DNA of 64,000 bases from Candidatus Hydrogenedentota bacterium (GTDB lineage: Bacteria > Hydrogenedentota > Hydrogenedentia > Hydrogenedentales > SLHB01). Positions 36,132-45,695 of this stretch are shown piece after piece. The stretch lies in contig CAXXTH010000023.1 of assembly GCA_963668025.2 (NCBI GenBank), positions 96,001 to 160,000 on the forward strand, given 5' to 3'. The first letter of the stretch is position 1. The number at the start of each line of letters is the position of its first letter. The notes beneath the pieces were generated by a model. It ran no database searches and was not told the origin of the DNA. It saw nothing but the letters and a program-made list of their open reading frames with translations. Position numbers and translations under genes: made by a program.

Positions 36132-36203
36132 CGTAGCATGGGCGTCCCGCCCATGAAAAATGTGCTAGAGCCAATGTTTCATGGGCGGGACGCCCATGCT
36201 ACG
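36132..36203. repeat. REP-like (GTAG-type) inverted doublet
   Basis: CGTAGCATGGGCGTCCCGCCCATG...CATGGGCGGGACGCCCATGCTACG directly after the ATPase stop codon. Confidence 0.85.
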
Positions 36204-36781: not shown

Positions 36782-37166
36782 GTATCACTTTCTCTGCAAA
36801 CAAAACAGTGTAATGACACGTGAGGCAAGGTCTCAGATGGCTTTGCCTCGTTTGTTCTTATCATATGCCCGCATTAAATACCAAATTAACATATTTATTA
36901 TTAAATTATTTTACAATATTTCGTCAATATATATCCGCTGTATACTCAAAAGTGTAAATCTATATTGAATAAGCAAAATTAAAATTTCGTAATCTTATTG
37001 GCATAAACGGGATTCCATATGGTACAAACCCGTTTGGGTGGGGATGATGGTTTTTCTTGATTGCATGCCGGGGTAGTCGTGCTTCTCGGGAGTCTAGATG
37101 AAGTTTATTTGAGGTGCGGCTATGCGGAACAAGGCTTTAGCGAGCCTAAAAGAAGAGGGAAACACT

Positions 37167-40100
37167 ATGCGTTGTACAAAGCCAGCAAGATTGTTTGGGG
37201 CGGTGGAGTATGGAAAGTCATTTTGGTTGATGGCTTCGCTTGTTATTTTTATTGCATCGCCGGGCCTGGAGGCGCATGCAACGGGTCTTGCATTGAGCGG
37301 GCGGGTGCAGCTTGATGGAGCAGGATTGAGCGGCGTCACCATGACGCTGAGCCGGACGGGGGCGGCGGATCAGGTATACACCACGAGCACCGATGGTTCG
37401 TATCAATTCACGGGCATCGCTTCCGCCAACTACACGCTCACCCCGAGTTTGGCGAAGCATGCGTTTAAGCCCGCCCAGATAAGCTATGCGCCACTGGCTC
37501 AAAGCCAGACAAATCAAAATTTTACGGCATCGAAGGCGTATACAATTAGCGGGAATGTATCACTTGAGGGCGGGGATGTGACCCAAGTGGAGATGGTGTT
37601 ATCGGGAGATGCGTCACAAACGGTTTATCCCGACTCCACTGGCGCATATGCCTTCACTAACCTGGCCGCTGGTGGATATGTCATTAAGCCCAAGCTTACT
37701 GGTGCTGTGTTTACGCCTGCGTCAAAAACGTATACGGATTTGGCCGCGGACCAAAGCGGCCAGGATTTTGTGGGAGATGCGTTGCATCAGATCACGGGAA
37801 AAGTGGCCAAAGATAGCGCAGGGCTTTCCGGGGTGGTGATGACCCTTAAGCAAACCGGGGCCGCGGATCGTGTCTATACGACGGGGCAAAATGGCGTGTA
37901 TGTGTTCGAGAGCCTGCCCACTGCGGAATACACCCTTGCACCGGCCAAAGCCAGCCATGTCTTTACGCCGGAGCAACGGGCATATGCGCCGCTGCTGGCG
38001 GATCAGACGGATCAGAATTTCGAAGCGCAGGAAGTGTATAGCATAAGCGGAACGGTGGTTTTGTCAGACGGCGGCGATGTGGCGCAAGTGGCGCTGGCGC
38101 TCACCGGCGACGCCGCTCGCACCGTGTATCCAGATGCATCGGGCGCATATGTTTTCGAGCAGCTTCCCGCTGGGAATTACACGGTAACACCCACGATGGC
38201 GGGCTGCACCTTCACGCCAGAGCAGCGGTGTTATGAAGGGCTTGCCGCAAGCCAGACAGGCCAGGATTTCCAGGGCAATAACCTGCACAGCATCACGGGA
38301 CACGTGTTGAAGGATGGCGCGGGGCTTGCCGGTGTCACGATGACTCTCCGCCAAACAGACGGCGCGGACCAGGTGTACGCCACGACCGGAGAGGGCGTAT
38401 TTGTCTTTAACAATGTCCCTACAGGCGATTACACGCTTACACCCAGCCTGGAAAATCATTCTTTCACACCGGAATTGCGGTCGTATGCGCCGCTCGCACA
38501 GGACGAGCTCGGCCAAGATTTTGAAGCCTTCGCGACCTATGCCATTCGAGGGATTGTAAGCCTGACGGATGGCGGCGATGTGGCCGCAGCCAAGGTGGTC
38601 CTGTCGGGCGACAAGGATGCGGAGGTTGCGCCAGATGAAGAAGGCGCATATGCCTTCACCGATCTCGAACCGGGCAATTATGAGGTCAAAGCCGTATTGC
38701 GCGGGTATCGATTCGAGCCGGAATTGGAGCAGTTTGCCCCGCTTGAATCGGATGAGGAAGGTGTAGACTTTGAAGGCGTCCGCGCCTATGGCGTCTGTGT
38801 GCCGTTTTTCCAAGACAATGCGCCTGCGGAAGGCCGCGTACCCGGCAGCCGGGGCAACCAGTCGTTTATTGGAGTGAAAAACCTTTCCGGCGAACCGAAT
38901 ACGCTGACGATTCACTACACGAATCAAAATGGAGAAGACCGCACGCCAGAAGCCAACACCTATGTGTTGAATGCATATGAGGGGCTTTCGTGGAGGCCAT
39001 GCCGCCAGGATGCAAACATTGAAGGCGTCGCGGCCGCCATTCCCGACATGACGGAAGAGTTTATTGGAAGCGCCTTGGTGTGGTCGACAGGCCCCGTGGC
39101 GGGGCGCATGCTCTTTGTGTCGGCCAATGGCTCGGAAAGCGCCTATACCTTGCCGGGTATTGAAGGCTCGGAACAAGTGGTGGCGCCGTTCTTCATGGAT
39201 TCATCACCCACCAACGGCACGGTGTTCCCCGGTACAGGCATGTCCACTTACCTTGGCGTGTTGAATATGGACAGCTCGGACATGGAAGCGCAGCTTCGGG
39301 TGTGGTACTCGAATTCGGCTAGTGTAGATCAAACGCCGGAAGAGAATTGCTTCACACTGGGAAGCTGGCTGGGCATTTCATGGCGGCCAGGAAAAGATGA
39401 TCCGAATCTCGAGGGCCATGGCGCGGCAGTGCCCAATATGATGTCCGGCGGCGTAGGCAGCGCGGTGGTCACGGGAGGCAAGTATCTTGCGGGCCGCGTG
39501 TTGTGCATGGCCTCGACTGGGGCGCAATATGCCTATACGATGAGTGGAGAAGGCTCGGAAGACCTCGTGGTTCCGTTCTTCATGGACAACGCCCCGGTGG
39601 AAGGCAAGCTCATTCCGAGTTCAGGCGACGCCACGTATATTGGGGTGAAGAACCTTTCGGCCGAACCCGTGACACTCACCATCCGGTATGCCAATATAAG
39701 CAATCTGGATGTAACGCCTGCCGTAAACACGTACGTGCTGGCGGCGAACGGCGCGGTATCGTGGCGTCCAAGCAAGAATGCTCCATTGCTTGAAGGCGTT
39801 GCAGTGAATGTGCCCGACATGGCGGCTGGCGTGGGCGGCAGCGCGGTTATCACTGCAACCGGGCCTATCGCGGGCCGCTTGCTCACGATAGCAACGAATG
39901 GCTCGATGAGCGCCTATACCCTTCGAAGCGCTGAAGGCGCAAAGACAGTAGTCGCCCCCTTCTTCCAGGACAACGCCCCAGCCGATGGCGCGTATCCGCC
40001 CGTGACAAATGCGGCGTCCTTTATCGGGATAAAAAACCTCACGGCGGAACCCGTGACGCTCACCATCCGGTATGCTAATGGCGCGGGAACCGACCGCACT

Positions 40101-40322
40101 CCCGCGAACAATACTTATGTGCTTGCGGGCAACGCGAACATATCCTGGCGGCCGACGCGTAATGATCCGGCCGTGGAAGGCGGAGCTGCCGCCGTGCCTG
40201 ATATGACATTGGGCGGCGTGGGCAGCGCTGTTATCGAGTCTACTGGGCCGGTGGCCGGGCGGTTGCTGACCGTTTCGTCCAAGTCGCAAAGCGCCTACGA
40301 ATTACCATCCAGCGAAGAATAG
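37167..40322 (+). CDS. Large secreted repeat protein: six carboxypeptidase-regulatory/Cna-B-like units plus four ~128-aa unrecognised units
   Basis: Signal-like segment; repeats I(S/T)GxV...G.Y.F..L..G.Y.LTP; C-terminal repeats (V/A)PFFxDN.P...IGVKNL...SWRP...VPDM...GSA...GPVAGR...SAY.L. Confidence 0.8.
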   Translation: MRCTKPARLFGAVEYGKSFWLMASLVIFIASPGLEAHATGLALSGRVQLDGAGLSGVTMTLSRTGAADQVYTTSTDGSYQFTGIASANYTLTPSLAKHAFKPAQISYAPLAQSQTNQNFTASKAYTISGNVSLEGGDVTQVEMVLSGDASQTVYPDSTGAYAFTNLAAGGYVIKPKLTGAVFTPASKTYTDLAADQSGQDFVGDALHQITGKVAKDSAGLSGVVMTLKQTGAADRVYTTGQNGVYVFESLPTAEYTLAPAKASHVFTPEQRAYAPLLADQTDQNFEAQEVYSISGTVVLSDGGDVAQVALALTGDAARTVYPDASGAYVFEQLPAGNYTVTPTMAGCTFTPEQRCYEGLAASQTGQDFQGNNLHSITGHVLKDGAGLAGVTMTLRQTDGADQVYATTGEGVFVFNNVPTGDYTLTPSLENHSFTPELRSYAPLAQDELGQDFEAFATYAIRGIVSLTDGGDVAAAKVVLSGDKDAEVAPDEEGAYAFTDLEPGNYEVKAVLRGYRFEPELEQFAPLESDEEGVDFEGVRAYGVCVPFFQDNAPAEGRVPGSRGNQSFIGVKNLSGEPNTLTIHYTNQNGEDRTPEANTYVLNAYEGLSWRPCRQDANIEGVAAAIPDMTEEFIGSALVWSTGPVAGRMLFVSANGSESAYTLPGIEGSEQVVAPFFMDSSPTNGTVFPGTGMSTYLGVLNMDSSDMEAQLRVWYSNSASVDQTPEENCFTLGSWLGISWRPGKDDPNLEGHGAAVPNMMSGGVGSAVVTGGKYLAGRVLCMASTGAQYAYTMSGEGSEDLVVPFFMDNAPVEGKLIPSSGDATYIGVKNLSAEPVTLTIRYANISNLDVTPAVNTYVLAANGAVSWRPSKNAPLLEGVAVNVPDMAAGVGGSAVITATGPIAGRLLTIATNGSMSAYTLRSAEGAKTVVAPFFQDNAPADGAYPPVTNAASFIGIKNLTAEPVTLTIRYANGAGTDRTPANNTYVLAGNANISWRPTRNDPAVEGGAAAVPDMTLGGVGSAVIESTGPVAGRLLTVSSKSQSAYELPSSEE

Positions 40323-40694: not shown

Positions 40695-43319
40695 GTGAAA
40701 AGTGATGACATCCGTTCGCAGTATCTCGAGTTCTTCCGCCAGCGCGGCCATGTGGTCGAACGCAGCGACAAGATAGTTCCGAGCAATGACCCGACGCTGT
40801 TGTTCTCCAGTGCGGGGATGGTGCAGTTCAAGCCGTATTATACGGGCCAGGTGCCCGTGCCCTACCGCCGCGCCACGACCTCGCAGAAATGCCTGCGGGC
40901 GGGCGGAAAGGCGAATGATCTGGATGAAGTGGGCAAAACCTCGCGGCACCTGACGTTTTTCGAGATGCTGGGCAATTTCTCGTTCGGCGATTACTTCAAA
41001 CGCGAGGCCATCACGTGGGCGTGGGAATTCAGCACGCGGGTGATCGGCTTCAAGCCCGAGCAAATCTGGGTGTCCGTGTTTACGGATGACGACGAAGCCC
41101 ATGATATTTGGGCGAAAGAGATCGGCGTTTCTGAGTCGCGCATTGTGCGCATGGGCGTGAAAGACAATTTCTGGGGCCCGGCGGGCGATACGGGGGCGTG
41201 CGGCCCTTGTTCGGAATTGCATCTCGACCGGGGCGCGCACATTGATCCGAACGGCACGCTCGAAGAGAATGACAAAGAGCGCTTTATTGAGTTTTGGAAT
41301 TTGGTGTTTCCGCAATTCGACCAACAGGCCGATGGCTCGCGCCCGCCCCTCAAGAATCGCGGCATCGACACCGGCATGGGCCTTGAACGCATGGCGGCGC
41401 TCCTGCAAGGCGTCGATACGGTATTTGATACGGACGGGATTTTCCCCATTATCGAGGCGACGCAGGCCCTTTCCAAAATACCCTACAAGAAAAATCCCGT
41501 GCCGTACCGAGTCATTGCCGACCATGTGCGGTCCCTGTCCTTCATGATTGCAGACGGCGTGCTGCCCGCCAATGACGGCCGGGGCTATGTCGAGCGGCGC
41601 TTGCTGCGCCGGGCGGCGCGGTTTGGCCGTGAGATCGGACTCGAAAAGCCGTTCCTGCACCAAGTGTGCGCGACGGTGGTCGAATTGATGGGCCACCATT
41701 ATCCCGAATTGTGCGAGCGCCAGCATCAGATTGAAAAGATCGTCCTCACGGAGGAGCAGCGGTTCCAAAGCACCTTGGCGCGCGGCATGGATCTGCTCGA
41801 AGAGATTTTCACCAAGATGGGCGGCGGGAAGACCGTTCCCGGCGAAGAATTGTTCCGCCTTCACGACACCTTTGGCTTCCCTCTCGATTTGGCTACGGAC
41901 ATCGCCGAGGATCGCGGCCTGGCGGTGGACCGGGAAGGATTCCAGGCGGCCATGACGCGCCAGCGCGAGAAGGCTCGAAGCGCCTGGGCGGGTTCGGGTG
42001 AATCGGGCATCGCGCCGGTCTACGGTGTTGTGCGCGGCGAAGTGGGCGATACCGAGTTTGTGGGGTACGACGCCTTGAACGCCGAATCGCGCATCGCGGC
42101 GATTATTCGCAACGGCCAGCGGGTTGGCAAGCTGGCGGAAGGCGAAGAAGGTGAGATCGTCCTCGATAAGACGCCGTTCTACGCCGAGTCTGGCGGACAA
42201 GTAGGCGATGTAGGCACGTTTGAATCCAAAGACGGCTGCGCCCATATCTCCGTCGCAAAAAAATTCGCGGGCAAGATGGTGATTCATCTCGCCCGTATCA
42301 CCACCGGCGCGCTCCAAGTGGGTGATGCCATCGAAGCCCAAGTGGACACGGCGGCCCGCGAGGCTACGCAGGGCCATCATACGGCGACCCACCTGCTCCA
42401 GGCGGCGCTCCAGGATATCCTGGGCGATCATGTGCAGCAGGCAGGCTCGCATGTCGGGCCGGACCGGCTCCGTTTCGATTTCACCCATTTCGAGGGCGTG
42501 GACGCGGAACGCTTGCGCGATATCGAGCGCATGGTGAACCAGTTCATCCGCACGGATTCCCCGGTGGATATTGAAAGCATGCCGCTGGATAAGGCCCGCG
42601 AGGCGGGCGCGATGGCGCTGTTCGGTGAGAAATACGAGGATGTGGTGCGCGTCGTGAAAGTCGATGGCATCAGCATGGAGCTGTGCGGCGGCACGCATGT
42701 GGCGCGCACCGGCGTGATCGGCTATTTCACGGTTTTGAGCGAGTCGTCCATTTCGGCGGGCGTGCGGCGCATCGAGGCGGTGTGCGGCGAATCCGCAGTG
42801 GACGCCGTGCAGGAACGCGAACGGCGTCTAACAGCGGCGGCGCGGCTGATGAACGCAAGCCCGGATGATATCGAGGCGCGCGTGCAAGCCATGCAGGACG
42901 AGCTCAAGCGCCTGAACCGGGAAGTCGCTAAATGGAAACAGGCCGCCGCCACCGGCGGTTCGGTGGATTATATGTCCAAAGTGGTGGACCTCGAAGGCGT
43001 GAAGCTGCTGGCCTGTGAAGTGGATGGCCAGGACGCGGCGGGGCTGCGCATGGTCATGGACAACCTGCGCGATAAGCTAGGTTCAGGCGTACTGGTGCTG
43101 GGCAGCGCCGCCGAGGGGAAAGTCTCGTTGTGCGCCGCCGTATCGAAAGACCTCGTCGGCCGGGTGCATGCGGGTAATATCGTCAAGCAACTGGCGCCCA
43201 TCGTGGGCGGCGGCGGCGGCGGTAAACCCGACATGGCGCAAGCGGGTGGCAAGCTCCCCGATAAGTTGAGCGAAGCCATCGCCCAGGTGGAAGTGGTCGT
43301 GCGGGGGATGCTGGCGTAA
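40695..43319 (+). CDS. alaS: Alanine--tRNA ligase
   Basis: DPTLLF..AGM, HLTFFEMLGNFSFGDYFK, DTGMGLER, HHTATHLL, ELCGGTH, GGGGGK. Confidence 0.98.
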   Translation: MKSDDIRSQYLEFFRQRGHVVERSDKIVPSNDPTLLFSSAGMVQFKPYYTGQVPVPYRRATTSQKCLRAGGKANDLDEVGKTSRHLTFFEMLGNFSFGDYFKREAITWAWEFSTRVIGFKPEQIWVSVFTDDDEAHDIWAKEIGVSESRIVRMGVKDNFWGPAGDTGACGPCSELHLDRGAHIDPNGTLEENDKERFIEFWNLVFPQFDQQADGSRPPLKNRGIDTGMGLERMAALLQGVDTVFDTDGIFPIIEATQALSKIPYKKNPVPYRVIADHVRSLSFMIADGVLPANDGRGYVERRLLRRAARFGREIGLEKPFLHQVCATVVELMGHHYPELCERQHQIEKIVLTEEQRFQSTLARGMDLLEEIFTKMGGGKTVPGEELFRLHDTFGFPLDLATDIAEDRGLAVDREGFQAAMTRQREKARSAWAGSGESGIAPVYGVVRGEVGDTEFVGYDALNAESRIAAIIRNGQRVGKLAEGEEGEIVLDKTPFYAESGGQVGDVGTFESKDGCAHISVAKKFAGKMVIHLARITTGALQVGDAIEAQVDTAAREATQGHHTATHLLQAALQDILGDHVQQAGSHVGPDRLRFDFTHFEGVDAERLRDIERMVNQFIRTDSPVDIESMPLDKAREAGAMALFGEKYEDVVRVVKVDGISMELCGGTHVARTGVIGYFTVLSESSISAGVRRIEAVCGESAVDAVQERERRLTAAARLMNASPDDIEARVQAMQDELKRLNREVAKWKQAAATGGSVDYMSKVVDLEGVKLLACEVDGQDAAGLRMVMDNLRDKLGSGVLVLGSAAEGKVSLCAAVSKDLVGRVHAGNIVKQLAPIVGGGGGGKPDMAQAGGKLPDKLSEAIAQVEVVVRGMLA

Positions 43320-43351
43320 CACAAAAATAGAGGCGTCTCGCCTGTGCCTTT

Positions 43352-43500
43352 TTTTAGACATGATTTACAAGATGAACAAGATTTTTTAGATTGGATTTAT
43401 TATGCGAAAGAATCCATGTCTAAAATAAAGAAAACAATGTATGAACTAATGAGAATGCTATGAAAAATCGTTGCTATCATCTTGTAAATCATGCCCAAAA
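43352..43500. repeat. Hairpin element A flanking the GxxExxY gene
   Basis: TTTTA GACATGATT TACAAGATG AACAAGATT ... CATCTTGTA AATCATGCC CAAAA; diverged direct repeat of 43916-44076. Confidence 0.85.
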
Positions 43501-43518
43501 AAGTAGGGATGCGGAACG

Positions 43519-43905
43519 ATGGAAGTAAACGAATTGACCAAGCTGGTTATTGGTTCCGCCTACACGGTCCATAATGTTCTGGGTTCCGGTTTTTTAGAGA
43601 AAGTGTACGAAAATGCGCTGTTGATCGAGTTGTTGGAGATAGGGTTGTCGGCGAAGCAGCAGGCAGAAATACCGGTTTACTATCGAGGGAAGAACGTAGG
43701 AGATTTTGTGGCGGATCTGATTGTTGAGGATAGGCTTATTATCGAGTTGAAAGCCGTGCAATCCCTTGCCAAAGAGCATGAAGTCCAACTAGTCAATTAT
43801 CTGAACGCGACGGAAATAGAGAATGGGTTGCTCATTAATTTTGGATCTTCCGTCACGGTGAAACGAAAATTCCGCCGATATGAATCCGCGGAAGATATTC
43901 TATAA
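43519..43905 (+). CDS. GxxExxY protein (PD-(D/E)XK-like putative nuclease)
   Basis: GSGFLEKVY, ADLIVEDRLIIELKAV, QLVNYL, GLLINFG. Confidence 0.93.
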   Translation: MEVNELTKLVIGSAYTVHNVLGSGFLEKVYENALLIELLEIGLSAKQQAEIPVYYRGKNVGDFVADLIVEDRLIIELKAVQSLAKEHEVQLVNYLNATEIENGLLINFGSSVTVKRKFRRYESAEDIL

Positions 43906-43915
43906 GGTGCTGTTT

Positions 43916-44076
43916 TTTTAGACATGATATACAAGATGGACAAGATTTTTATTGATTGGGTTTACAATAGAAATAAATGAATGACATAAATAAAACACAT
44001 GAGAATGAGTGAACTTATGAGAATGCTATTAAAAATCTTCGTTATCATCTTGTAAATCTTGTTAATCATGTCTAAA
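43916..44076. repeat. Hairpin element B flanking the GxxExxY gene
   Basis: TTTTA GACATGATA TACAAGATG GACAAGATT ... CATCTTGTA AATCTTGTT AATCATGTC TAAA. Confidence 0.85.
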
Positions 44077-44112
44077 TAAAGCATGTGGGGAAACAACATC
44101 AGGATACGCTTT

Positions 44113-44556
44113 ATGTTGGAAGGCCGGATGATCGGGTTAGATATAGGCGATGTGCGGATCGGCGTCGCCGTGAGCGATGGACTGGGCATCACGGCCCAGC
44201 CGCGCGAAGTGATCGCCGTGTCCACGCCCGAGAAGGATATCGCGGTCATCCGGGCCATTATCGAGGAGACGCGCGCCGTGCGCATCGTAGCGGGCTTGCC
44301 GCTTGACCGCGAAGGCAAGGCGGGGCATCAGGCGCAGAAAGTGCTTGGTTTTCTGGATCAGTTGCGCGCCACCATTGAAATTCCCATTGTAATGCAGGAT
44401 GAACGTTTCACGACGGCCTCCGTACAGCGCAGCATGATCGCCGCCGATGTGAGCCGCAAGAAGCGCAAGCAAATAGTGGATAAGCTGGCGGCGCAGCAGA
44501 TTCTACAAGCGTATCTGGACCGGCAGGCCCACGAGCGGAAATACCCTTCGACATGA
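44113..44556 (+). CDS. ruvX: YqgF/RuvX family RNase H-fold nuclease
   Basis: IGLDIGDVRIGVAVSD, GLP, DERFTT, VDKLAA..IL. Confidence 0.93.
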   Translation: MLEGRMIGLDIGDVRIGVAVSDGLGITAQPREVIAVSTPEKDIAVIRAIIEETRAVRIVAGLPLDREGKAGHQAQKVLGFLDQLRATIEIPIVMQDERFTTASVQRSMIAADVSRKKRKQIVDKLAAQQILQAYLDRQAHERKYPST

Positions 44557-45695
44557 GCAGCGAACACGGCGAGGTGATATTCGGAACGGACGAAGAAAAG
44601 CCCAAGCGTTCCCGCGCCGGATGTTGTCTTCGGGTATTGATTCGCACGGCGCTTGCCTTGCTGGCAATTGCAGCGCTGGCGGCTGCGGGTGTGGGCGTGC
44701 TCGGATATCTGGCCTACGACCGCATCACTGGCACGGGCGCACCAGGTGAAAAGGTGCATGTTGAGATTCCCGAAGGGGCCACGGGCCGTAGCGCGGGACA
44801 GATACTATCCAGCGCGGGCCTCATCGAACACGAATTCATGCTGCGCGGCGCGATGCATCTCGATAAAACAGGCAAGACCATCAAGCATGGCGCATACGAG
44901 CTGCCCAAGGGGCTGTCAGCCATGCAATATCTCGAATTGCTGGACAAGGGGCCAAACGCCGTCTTTGATGCGGGGGGAATTCCGCCGGAACGCCGGTTGA
45001 CTGTTCCCGAGGGCCTCAGCATCAACCAGATGGCCGCCCTCTTCGATGACCCCGAGGCGTTCAAGGAAGCTGCCGCTGATCCAGGCCTCCGCACACGCAT
45101 GGGCGTCCGCGCGGCTACCCTCGAAGGCTTTCTGATGCCGGACACGTATTATTTTGATCAGAAGCCCACGCCGCGCGAGGCCGTCGAGCGCATGGCGTCG
45201 CAGTTCGAACGCGAATTCGCGGAACTGCTTGCTTTGTATCCTCTGCCCGCGGATTATGACCGCGACGCGGTGGTGGCGGTGGCGTCGCTGGTGGAGGAAG
45301 AGGCCAAAGTGGATGAAGAACGTCCGCTGGTGGCGGCGGTCATTTATAATCGATTGAAAAAGGGGATTCCTTTGGGCATGGATTCCACCCTCCAATTTTC
45401 GCTGAACAAATACGGCCAGCGCATGCTCGATGCCGATAAGGAAGTGGATTCGCCTTACAATACGTATAAGAACGCGGGCTTGCCGCCAGGGCCCATATGC
45501 AGCCCTGGCCTTGCCGCCTTGCGCGCCGCGCTCGATCCCGCCCGTGAGAATTACTTATACTTCGTATCGAATGCGGATGGGCGCACGCATACCTTTAGCA
45601 AGACGCTAGAGGAGCATAACCGCGCCGTATCGCGTTTCCGTAAAGAAATTCGGGTGCAGCGGCGGCAGCTTAAGCAGGATACCGATGGCAATTGA
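44553..45695 (+). CDS. mltG: Endolytic transglycosylase MltG
   Basis: LEGFLMPDTY, ASLVEEE, SPYNTY, GLPPGPI, YLYFV. Confidence 0.94.
   Translation: MSSEHGEVIFGTDEEKPKRSRAGCCLRVLIRTALALLAIAALAAAGVGVLGYLAYDRITGTGAPGEKVHVEIPEGATGRSAGQILSSAGLIEHEFMLRGAMHLDKTGKTIKHGAYELPKGLSAMQYLELLDKGPNAVFDAGGIPPERRLTVPEGLSINQMAALFDDPEAFKEAAADPGLRTRMGVRAATLEGFLMPDTYYFDQKPTPREAVERMASQFEREFAELLALYPLPADYDRDAVVAVASLVEEEAKVDEERPLVAAVIYNRLKKGIPLGMDSTLQFSLNKYGQRMLDADKEVDSPYNTYKNAGLPPGPICSPGLAALRAALDPARENYLYFVSNADGRTHTFSKTLEEHNRAVSRFRKEIRVQRRQLKQDTDGN

Follow-up and report, generated by a model that had tools for sequence, protein, structure and literature searches.

A GxxExxY gene with a predicted nuclease fold between repeated-unit hairpins: a candidate small mobile element in the alaS-ruvX operon of a Hydrogenedentota bacterium

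The window analysed here is a 64,000-nt stretch of a Candidatus Hydrogenedentota genome. Within it, alaS and ruvX, the latter followed by mltG/YceG, are separated by a unit in which a single small gene of the GxxExxY (PDDEXK_3) family stands between two complete hairpins (Table 1). Upstream of alaS, on the same strand, lies a 1066-aa ORF (window 37122-40322) with internal repeat modules of ~110 aa and ~180 aa.

Table 1. Genes and sequence features of the alaS-ruvX region (window coordinates)
Feature	Position	Strand	Remarks
alaS	40695-43319		left neighbour of insert
small G+C stem	43331..43343	+	right after alaS stop; host spacer left of insert
left hairpin element	43349..43503	+	155 bp; repeat/palindrome search, ssDNA fold
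left hairpin outer (5') arm	43349..43386	+	left terminal arm of whole 730-bp unit
left hairpin inner arm	43477..43503	+	ends 15 nt ahead of start codon
GxxExxY / PDDEXK_3 gene	43519..43905	+	128 aa
right hairpin element	43913..44081	+	~169 bp; direct repeat of left; begins 7 nt past stop codon
right hairpin outer (3') arm	44047..44081	+	pairs with 43348-43382
ruvX (PF03652)	44113..44556	+	homology to relatives from about residue 11-14 of ORF listed from 44083
mltG/YceG (PF02618)	44553-45695		after ruvX

The G+C content is ~62% outside the insert, ~45% in the gene and 27-30% in the hairpins. The left element reads as a T-run, the units AGACATGAT / TTACAAGAT / GAACAAGAT, an AT-rich loop of ~90 nt, the complementary units and an A-run. 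Aligned over their whole length, the two elements show 84% column identity; their 38-nt arms are 95% identical as direct repeats, and identity is 86% over 58 nt (43436-43493 versus 44004-44061) containing the loop segment singled out in the preliminary description. Each hairpin has complementary arms of its own (left, 26 nt at 92%; right, 34 nt at 85%), and the outermost arms of the unit pair over 35 nt at 89%. The small stem after alaS together with the T-run of the element gives a terminator-like score.

A period of 9 was detected by TRF at 44047-44071 (2.8 copies, 87%) and is readable by eye in the remaining arms, such that the window arms comprise three 9-nt units with the core ACAWGAT. 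The 20-mer TAGACATGATTTACAAGATG occurs five times in the window at up to three mismatches and not once in 100 shuffles. When folded as ssDNA, the left and right elements gave z values of -5.5 and -4.1, respectively, each surpassing all 200 shuffles, and RNA folding of the whole 793-nt stretch gave -3.5. The preliminary description, made from the same letters, had proposed two AT-rich, directly repeated palindromes with arms of 9-nt units around the gene and a pairing between the outermost arms; both are borne out here, as is the folding, with the boundaries shifted by ~3-5 bases.

The product of the gene accounts for the sole Pfam match of the insert (PF13366, E 8e-41, 139.5 bits against a cut-off of 22) and also matches TIGR04256 GxxExxY (E 1.7e-40, 138 bits against a cut-off of 35). 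All residues invariant in the family are present (G22, G24, E27, Y30, D66, E76, K78, Q90 and Y94) and, G22 aside, these are invariant across 36 aligned sequences that include the window's own. The GxxExxY motif and the D...ExK catalytic core are thus both present in the protein. The best structural matches to an AF2 model (pLDDT 90.7) were all PD-(D/E)XK nucleases, with Z values from 8.5 down to 6, among them 3ijm (8.5), the BpuSI nuclease domain (8.3), Cas4 SSO0001 (4ic1; 8.2) and Hjc (6.3). From this model the protein is predicted to have a PD-(D/E)XK (restriction-endonuclease-like) fold; since the Z values are middling and tied among subfamilies, we name the fold and no subfamily. A search for sequence relatives among solved structures found none.

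Comparison with other genomes indicates that the unit entered the operon. Nineteen junction loci were compared, all of them from other genera within the same family and order: alaS directly adjoins ruvX in 14, another gene precedes ruvX in the remaining five, and none has a GxxExxY gene at the alaS-ruvX junction. The same genome carries a second, diverged hairpin-gene-hairpin unit between sufC and sufD (C17:83037-83767), where the gap measures 766 nt as against ~25-146 nt in 23 of 24 relatives. One relative with a sufC-sufD gap of ~598 nt (L216, genome G020) was considered and set aside: the ORF in its gap encodes a small hydrophobic membrane protein and has no relation to the GxxExxY units. 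The two units of this genome align over their full length, up to the outer ends of the hairpins, where their similarity stops, and both share the orientation of the host operon. The window unit was inserted into a short operon spacer in a lineage-specific manner, which upholds the earlier reading of it as an inserted unit.

The two hairpin-gene-hairpin copies are old. Their genes share 81% DNA identity, with a dS of 1.27 and a dN/dS of 0.05, and the protein is under strong purifying selection. Read off the alignment, 35 of 39 positions are the same in their left outer arms, whereas little of the loops can be aligned. Given this divergence, the low dN/dS and the agreement of the arms together argue that both protein and arms are constrained; alternatively, exchange with other hairpin copies keeps the arms alike.

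At the ends of 43 hairpin copies and 13 gene-bearing elements, nothing that could be a target-site duplication is visible beyond the T/A runs. A search of metagenome contigs gave no close relative of RuvX, the best match reaching 60%. Sequencing contigs of the likely source sample contain the cassette, broken up at the repeats, and yielded no empty site. Two read joints (43385-44054 and 43384-43950) were considered as excision products; both have only short sides and are compatible with other hairpin copies, and we therefore regard them as repeat artefacts.

The association between gene and arms extends well beyond the window. In this genome there are 12 PF13366 loci, seven intact and five decayed, and flank repeats relating both sides are found at 11 of them. 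The unit sequences vary by locus (CACTAAATA/CACGAAATA, CGCGAATGGA, CCACAGAGG, CTTCGCGC, CGCAAAGG). Loci were scored as bracketed if their flanks were in an inverted or direct relation over at least 17 nt. By this measure 27 loci were bracketed out of 29 sampled from as many other genomes of the phylum, compared with 0/49 shifted controls; of the two negatives, one (L078) has arms visible by eye and the other (L087) has a hairpin on one side only. In a broader set, which covers Acidobacteriota, Planctomycetota, Verrucomicrobiota, Chloroflexota, Bacteroidota, several Proteobacteria, a cyanobacterium, Chlamydiae and one archaeal bin, 56 of 80 loci were bracketed (54 of 75 where both flanks reach at least 200 nt), compared with 3/145 shifted controls, two of the three positives coming from one array region. 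The preliminary description had proposed a check of the flanks of further GxxExxY genes, and its outcome is strongly positive. On these sequence comparisons, gene and arms travel together, both within the genome and across phyla.

Of 121 genomes of the phylum, 100 contain PF13366, most of them more than once; GxxExxY proteins from different phyla are 57-68% identical, and nearly the same architecture recurs in many other phyla. This breadth, the cross-phylum identity and the intact and decayed copies in one genome are signs of a selfish element. Of the 100 PF13366-positive genomes of the phylum, 83 have arms of the CCACRRAG type, compared with 6 of the 21 PF13366-negative ones. One of these six, from the same order (G043, 91% complete), contains 71 arms in tandem hairpin arrays and has no PF13366 match even at E 0.1; its CACAGAG-type arrays have a period of ~195 nt and lie mostly at contig ends (e.g. 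C4:76121-76780, C26:121425-122039, C53:55239-55901). A search of Rfam gave nothing over threshold in the window (one match, E 0.47) and only sub-threshold microRNA-hairpin and similar matches at 16 related loci. In the searched literature (supplements and subscription journals excluded) we found no treatment of the function or flanks of GxxExxY, PDDEXK_3, PF13366 or TIGR04256, and ACCACAGAG combined with 'inverted repeat' gave unrelated matches only. Within that literature the gene-arm association is apparently undescribed.

The arms share a common architecture. They are built of three to four tandem units, typically (T)CACCAC followed by RRAG, whose starts are spaced by 8, 9 or 10 nt in 184, 194 and 108 cases, respectively. 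Two layouts occur among the 109 loci from other genomes: the commoner, in which a single pair of arms brackets the gene (arm-gene-arm'), accounts for 62, and the rarer, that of the window copy, with the gene between complete hairpins, for 15. The latter could not be derived from the former by circular permutation or by a single insertion. Some genomes contain arrays of hairpin, gene or gene fragment, and hairpin. In the present genome, hairpins of the CGCAAAG type alternate with whole, truncated or frameshifted GxxExxY genes in the manner of a cassette array (C21:32149-39033, C23:334152-334797, C8:158454-161340).

When unit type was mapped onto the protein tree, 14 changes were required; when the labels were shuffled 500 times, the average was 23.4 and the lowest value 19. 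Unit type thus follows the protein tree, which shows joint inheritance of gene and arms; this co-variation may be plain co-inheritance and by itself is no proof of recognition. A second line of evidence comes from the arms themselves. At 48 loci, the 7-nt cores of the two arms differed at 3.6% of positions, as against 33.5% for the spacers (Fisher 1.6e-34); the cores were set on one arm by a loose pattern, yet the two free core positions mismatch at only 12.8% and 1.4%. Because cores are matched and spacers are not, the conserved entity is the repeated core at 9-nt spacing rather than a continuous helix. Such conservation would fit several protomers on one duplex face better than a mere RNase III stem.

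Taken together, these results point to a model in which the segment 43349-44081 represents one copy of a selfish mobile element of small size, with a GxxExxY PD-(D/E)XK nuclease of ~125 aa as its only gene and inverted unit arrays as its ends, each array consisting of three to four tandem units with a 7-nt core and an 8-10-nt period. We judge the chances of this model to be evenly balanced. Counting against it are the arms in PF13366-negative genomes, G043 above all, the ends free of any visible target-site duplication and, as set out below, the many hairpins inside an IS66-derived MITE and the similar frame of PF05635 genes. Three other explanations have to be weighed against it.

The first takes the arms to act in RNA. 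Here they would pair in the transcript, where RNase III cuts or the insert is insulated, so that it is removed from or tolerated in the alaS-ruvX mRNA, and the unit structure would be a by-product. The window hairpins fold well, as this explanation expects, and further support comes from a different gene family in other genomes of the phylum. PF05635 is the ORF family of 23S rRNA intervening sequences (IVS), encoding a four-helix-bundle protein that is not a nuclease. At 22 of 28 PF05635 loci (L228-L257) the gene is bracketed by inverted arrays of tandem 7-nt units, compared with 0/51 controls. Their units (e.g. GGGTCTA/GGGTTTA) are in no case of the CACRRAG type, so that the two families each keep a unit type of their own; GGGTTTA/TTTAGGG, read in several of these arrays, is the plant-type telomere repeat. 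Since PF05635 genes have the same kind of frame, the frame needs no nuclease, and the action of stems in RNA, offered as an alternative in the preliminary description, becomes a serious co-explanation. The orientation of neighbouring genes is also in keeping with a dependence on read-through: by a crude longest-ORF rule, both neighbouring long ORFs run in the direction of the GxxExxY gene at 50 and are both opposed to it at 10 of the 81 loci judged among the 109 from other genomes. This bias fits read-through expression and IVS-like RNA processing, and equally strand-biased insertion.

One account (PMC4990558) describes IVS, known with an S23p/PF05635 ORF from Leptospira and Coxiella, as sporadic, horizontally transferred inserts of ~430 nt that are regarded as selfish, whose terminal inverted repeats can form a stem of ~30 bp around the ORF, and whose origin, mobility and mode of moving have been open since 1990. 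The GxxExxY element resembles IVS in size (0.4-0.8 kb), in having one small ORF and in terminal inverted repeats able to form a stem around it. It differs in its location outside rRNA: the window copy lies between alaS and ruvX, and none of 110 other GxxExxY loci matches 23S rRNA. It differs further in its units, CACRRAG-like and repeating every 8-10 nt (in the window, ACAAGAT) rather than 7-nt and GGGTYTA-like, in its ORF, a predicted PD-(D/E)XK nuclease rather than a four-helix-bundle protein, and, in the window copy, in having a complete hairpin on each side in place of one stem. Against an exclusive role in RNA stand this absence from 23S rRNA, the spacers, mismatched ten times as often as the cores, which places selection on core sequence instead of an unbroken helix, and the arrival at new sites, which such a role leaves unexplained. 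We consider the explanation unlikely in itself; it is compatible with that of a mobile element.

The second holds that the hairpins are non-autonomous and depend for their movement on an enzyme from another locus; the GxxExxY gene would be a passenger in a composite unit, and its nuclease would have some other role, for instance in defence or repair. It has to be read against the hairpin family of this genome. With the 38-nt outer left arm as query, 43 paired elements and 33 solo arm matches were found in 6.1 Mb. The paired hairpins span 91-336 bp, mostly 130-165 bp, with arms of ~35 nt; short, non-coding and present in 43 copies with terminal inverted repeats, they resemble MITEs in these respects. 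Twenty-five of them lie at a fixed position and orientation inside ends GTAACACTTTAGC (12 with both ends, 13 with one). These ends, which differ from those of the hairpins, belong to an IS66-family element with five full copies. Much of the hairpin copy number may therefore stem from a conventional MITE, and the MITE-borne hairpins may have spread by a different transposase. The remaining 18 hairpins have no GTAACACTTTAGC ends within 200 nt, and among these are the four that flank the two hairpin-gene-hairpin GxxExxY genes. No long element that could be a parent IS with the hairpin family's own ends was found among the 33 solo arms. Variants of the 20-mer were found in 6 of 30 relatives versus one control match. 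Gene-less, MITE-/REPIN-like derivatives of the hairpin are thus scattered through the genome.

The IS66-family element measures 1.54 kb and its copies are near-identical (PF03050, E 2.7e-42, and zf-IS66; C10:340300-341950, L227); the others lie at C10:383932, 776382 and 822980 and at C17:1524905. Its MITE derivatives hold the ACAAGAT hairpin at a fixed internal position. A strict exact-seed scan of the whole genome (75 hits) listed other palindrome families: a G+C-rich, REP-like one, CGTAGCATGGGCGTCCCGCCCATGA, with at least 13 copies and loops of 20-25 nt, and two more, GTAGGGTGGGGCTTGCCCCACC and CCTTAGCACCTGGCTTCAGCCAGGGTGGA. Example sites are C23:132132-132203 (window 36132-36203), C10:14051-14122 and C17:267932-267999.

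A passenger gene would sit well with this fixed place of most hairpins in an IS66-type MITE whose parent IS has full copies, with the genome that contains arms and no GxxExxY gene, and with the position of the window gene outside both hairpins, as in a composite transposon. The window unit itself, however, has no IS66 ends nearby. Moreover, the gene-arm link spans phyla despite differing arm sequences, unit type tracks the protein clade, the arms in the commoner layout directly bracket the gene with nothing else inside, and no other gene recurs beside the loci (by eye). For these reasons we rate it as rather improbable. Very improbable indeed is the third explanation, that an ordinary resident gene happens to stand beside intergenic palindromes of a generic kind (REP-like stabilisers or terminators): the genome does hold several other palindrome families, but bracketing far exceeds that of the shifted controls, the relatives' site is empty and a second copy occupies another operon.

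Other known systems resemble the unit in part. Like a REP/REPIN-RAYT system (REPtron), it has a single small gene flanked by palindromic repeats and many dispersed gene-less copies. It departs from it in that its protein is a predicted PD-(D/E)XK nuclease instead of a Y1 HUH IS200-like transposase, its arms are AT-rich arrays of tandem units and not G+C-rich REPs, and the GxxExxY gene is itself present in several copies, undergoes decay and passes from one phylum to another. With a MITE and its parent IS it shares terminal inverted repeats, small size, intergenic location, multiple copies and the coexistence of arm-gene-arm' and gene-less arm-loop-arm' forms; unlike them, it encodes no DDE or other known transposase and its ends are tandem-unit arrays; no target-site duplication is visible at the ends of the copies compared. 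An integron cassette likewise has a promoterless-looking small ORF beside an imperfect palindrome, and some genomes contain hairpin-gene-hairpin arrays. The window copy, by contrast, stands alone within a housekeeping operon, and its boundaries read as a T-run and then AGACATG, with no attC-like core (by reading). Of the two analogies first drawn for this locus, that with REP/RAYT fits in layout, whereas that with attC cassettes does not hold, there being neither an array nor an attC-like boundary. Hairpins at both ends also recall IS200/IS605, but PF13366 is the only gene and neither TnpA (HUH) nor TnpB is present.

Within the mobile-element model, the most economical mechanism would be recognition and cleavage of the unit arrays by the nuclease, a proposal that, to our minds, could equally well prove right or wrong. 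Putative recognition of its own arms has indirect support, in that unit type tracks the protein clade and cores are conserved and spacers are not. Several nuclease protomers would bind the repeated cores on both arms, either as duplex or as extruded hairpin, and cut at the arms. PD-(D/E)XK nucleases are hydrolytic and cannot on their own join strands; mobility must therefore borrow host functions, and host repair or recombination would complete the copying, with a new site or a gene-less hairpin as its target. Once transcribed, the arms would probably also pair into stems like those of rRNA intervening sequences, and operons could thereby tolerate the insert. A function of the stems in RNA likely coexists with nuclease recognition of the arms.

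To our knowledge, GxxExxY/PDDEXK_3 is a large family without a known function, and the fixed DNA frame described here provides it with a testable one. The frame also accounts for many of the 'orphan' hairpin repeats that break metagenome assemblies, and it connects the family with rRNA intervening sequences. More tentatively, we suggest that GxxExxY genes and their unit-array arms may constitute unrecognised, pan-bacterial minimal mobile elements, in which the nuclease would read 7-nt cores 9 nt apart and drive its own spread via host repair. If true, this would be a new way of moving DNA, unlike that of the DDE, HUH, serine and tyrosine enzymes, and rRNA intervening sequences, with their S23p ORF and partly telomere-like arrays of 7-nt units, would be a sister class that shares this basic design. 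Practical uses are also conceivable for so small a nuclease, whose repeated core looks programmable.
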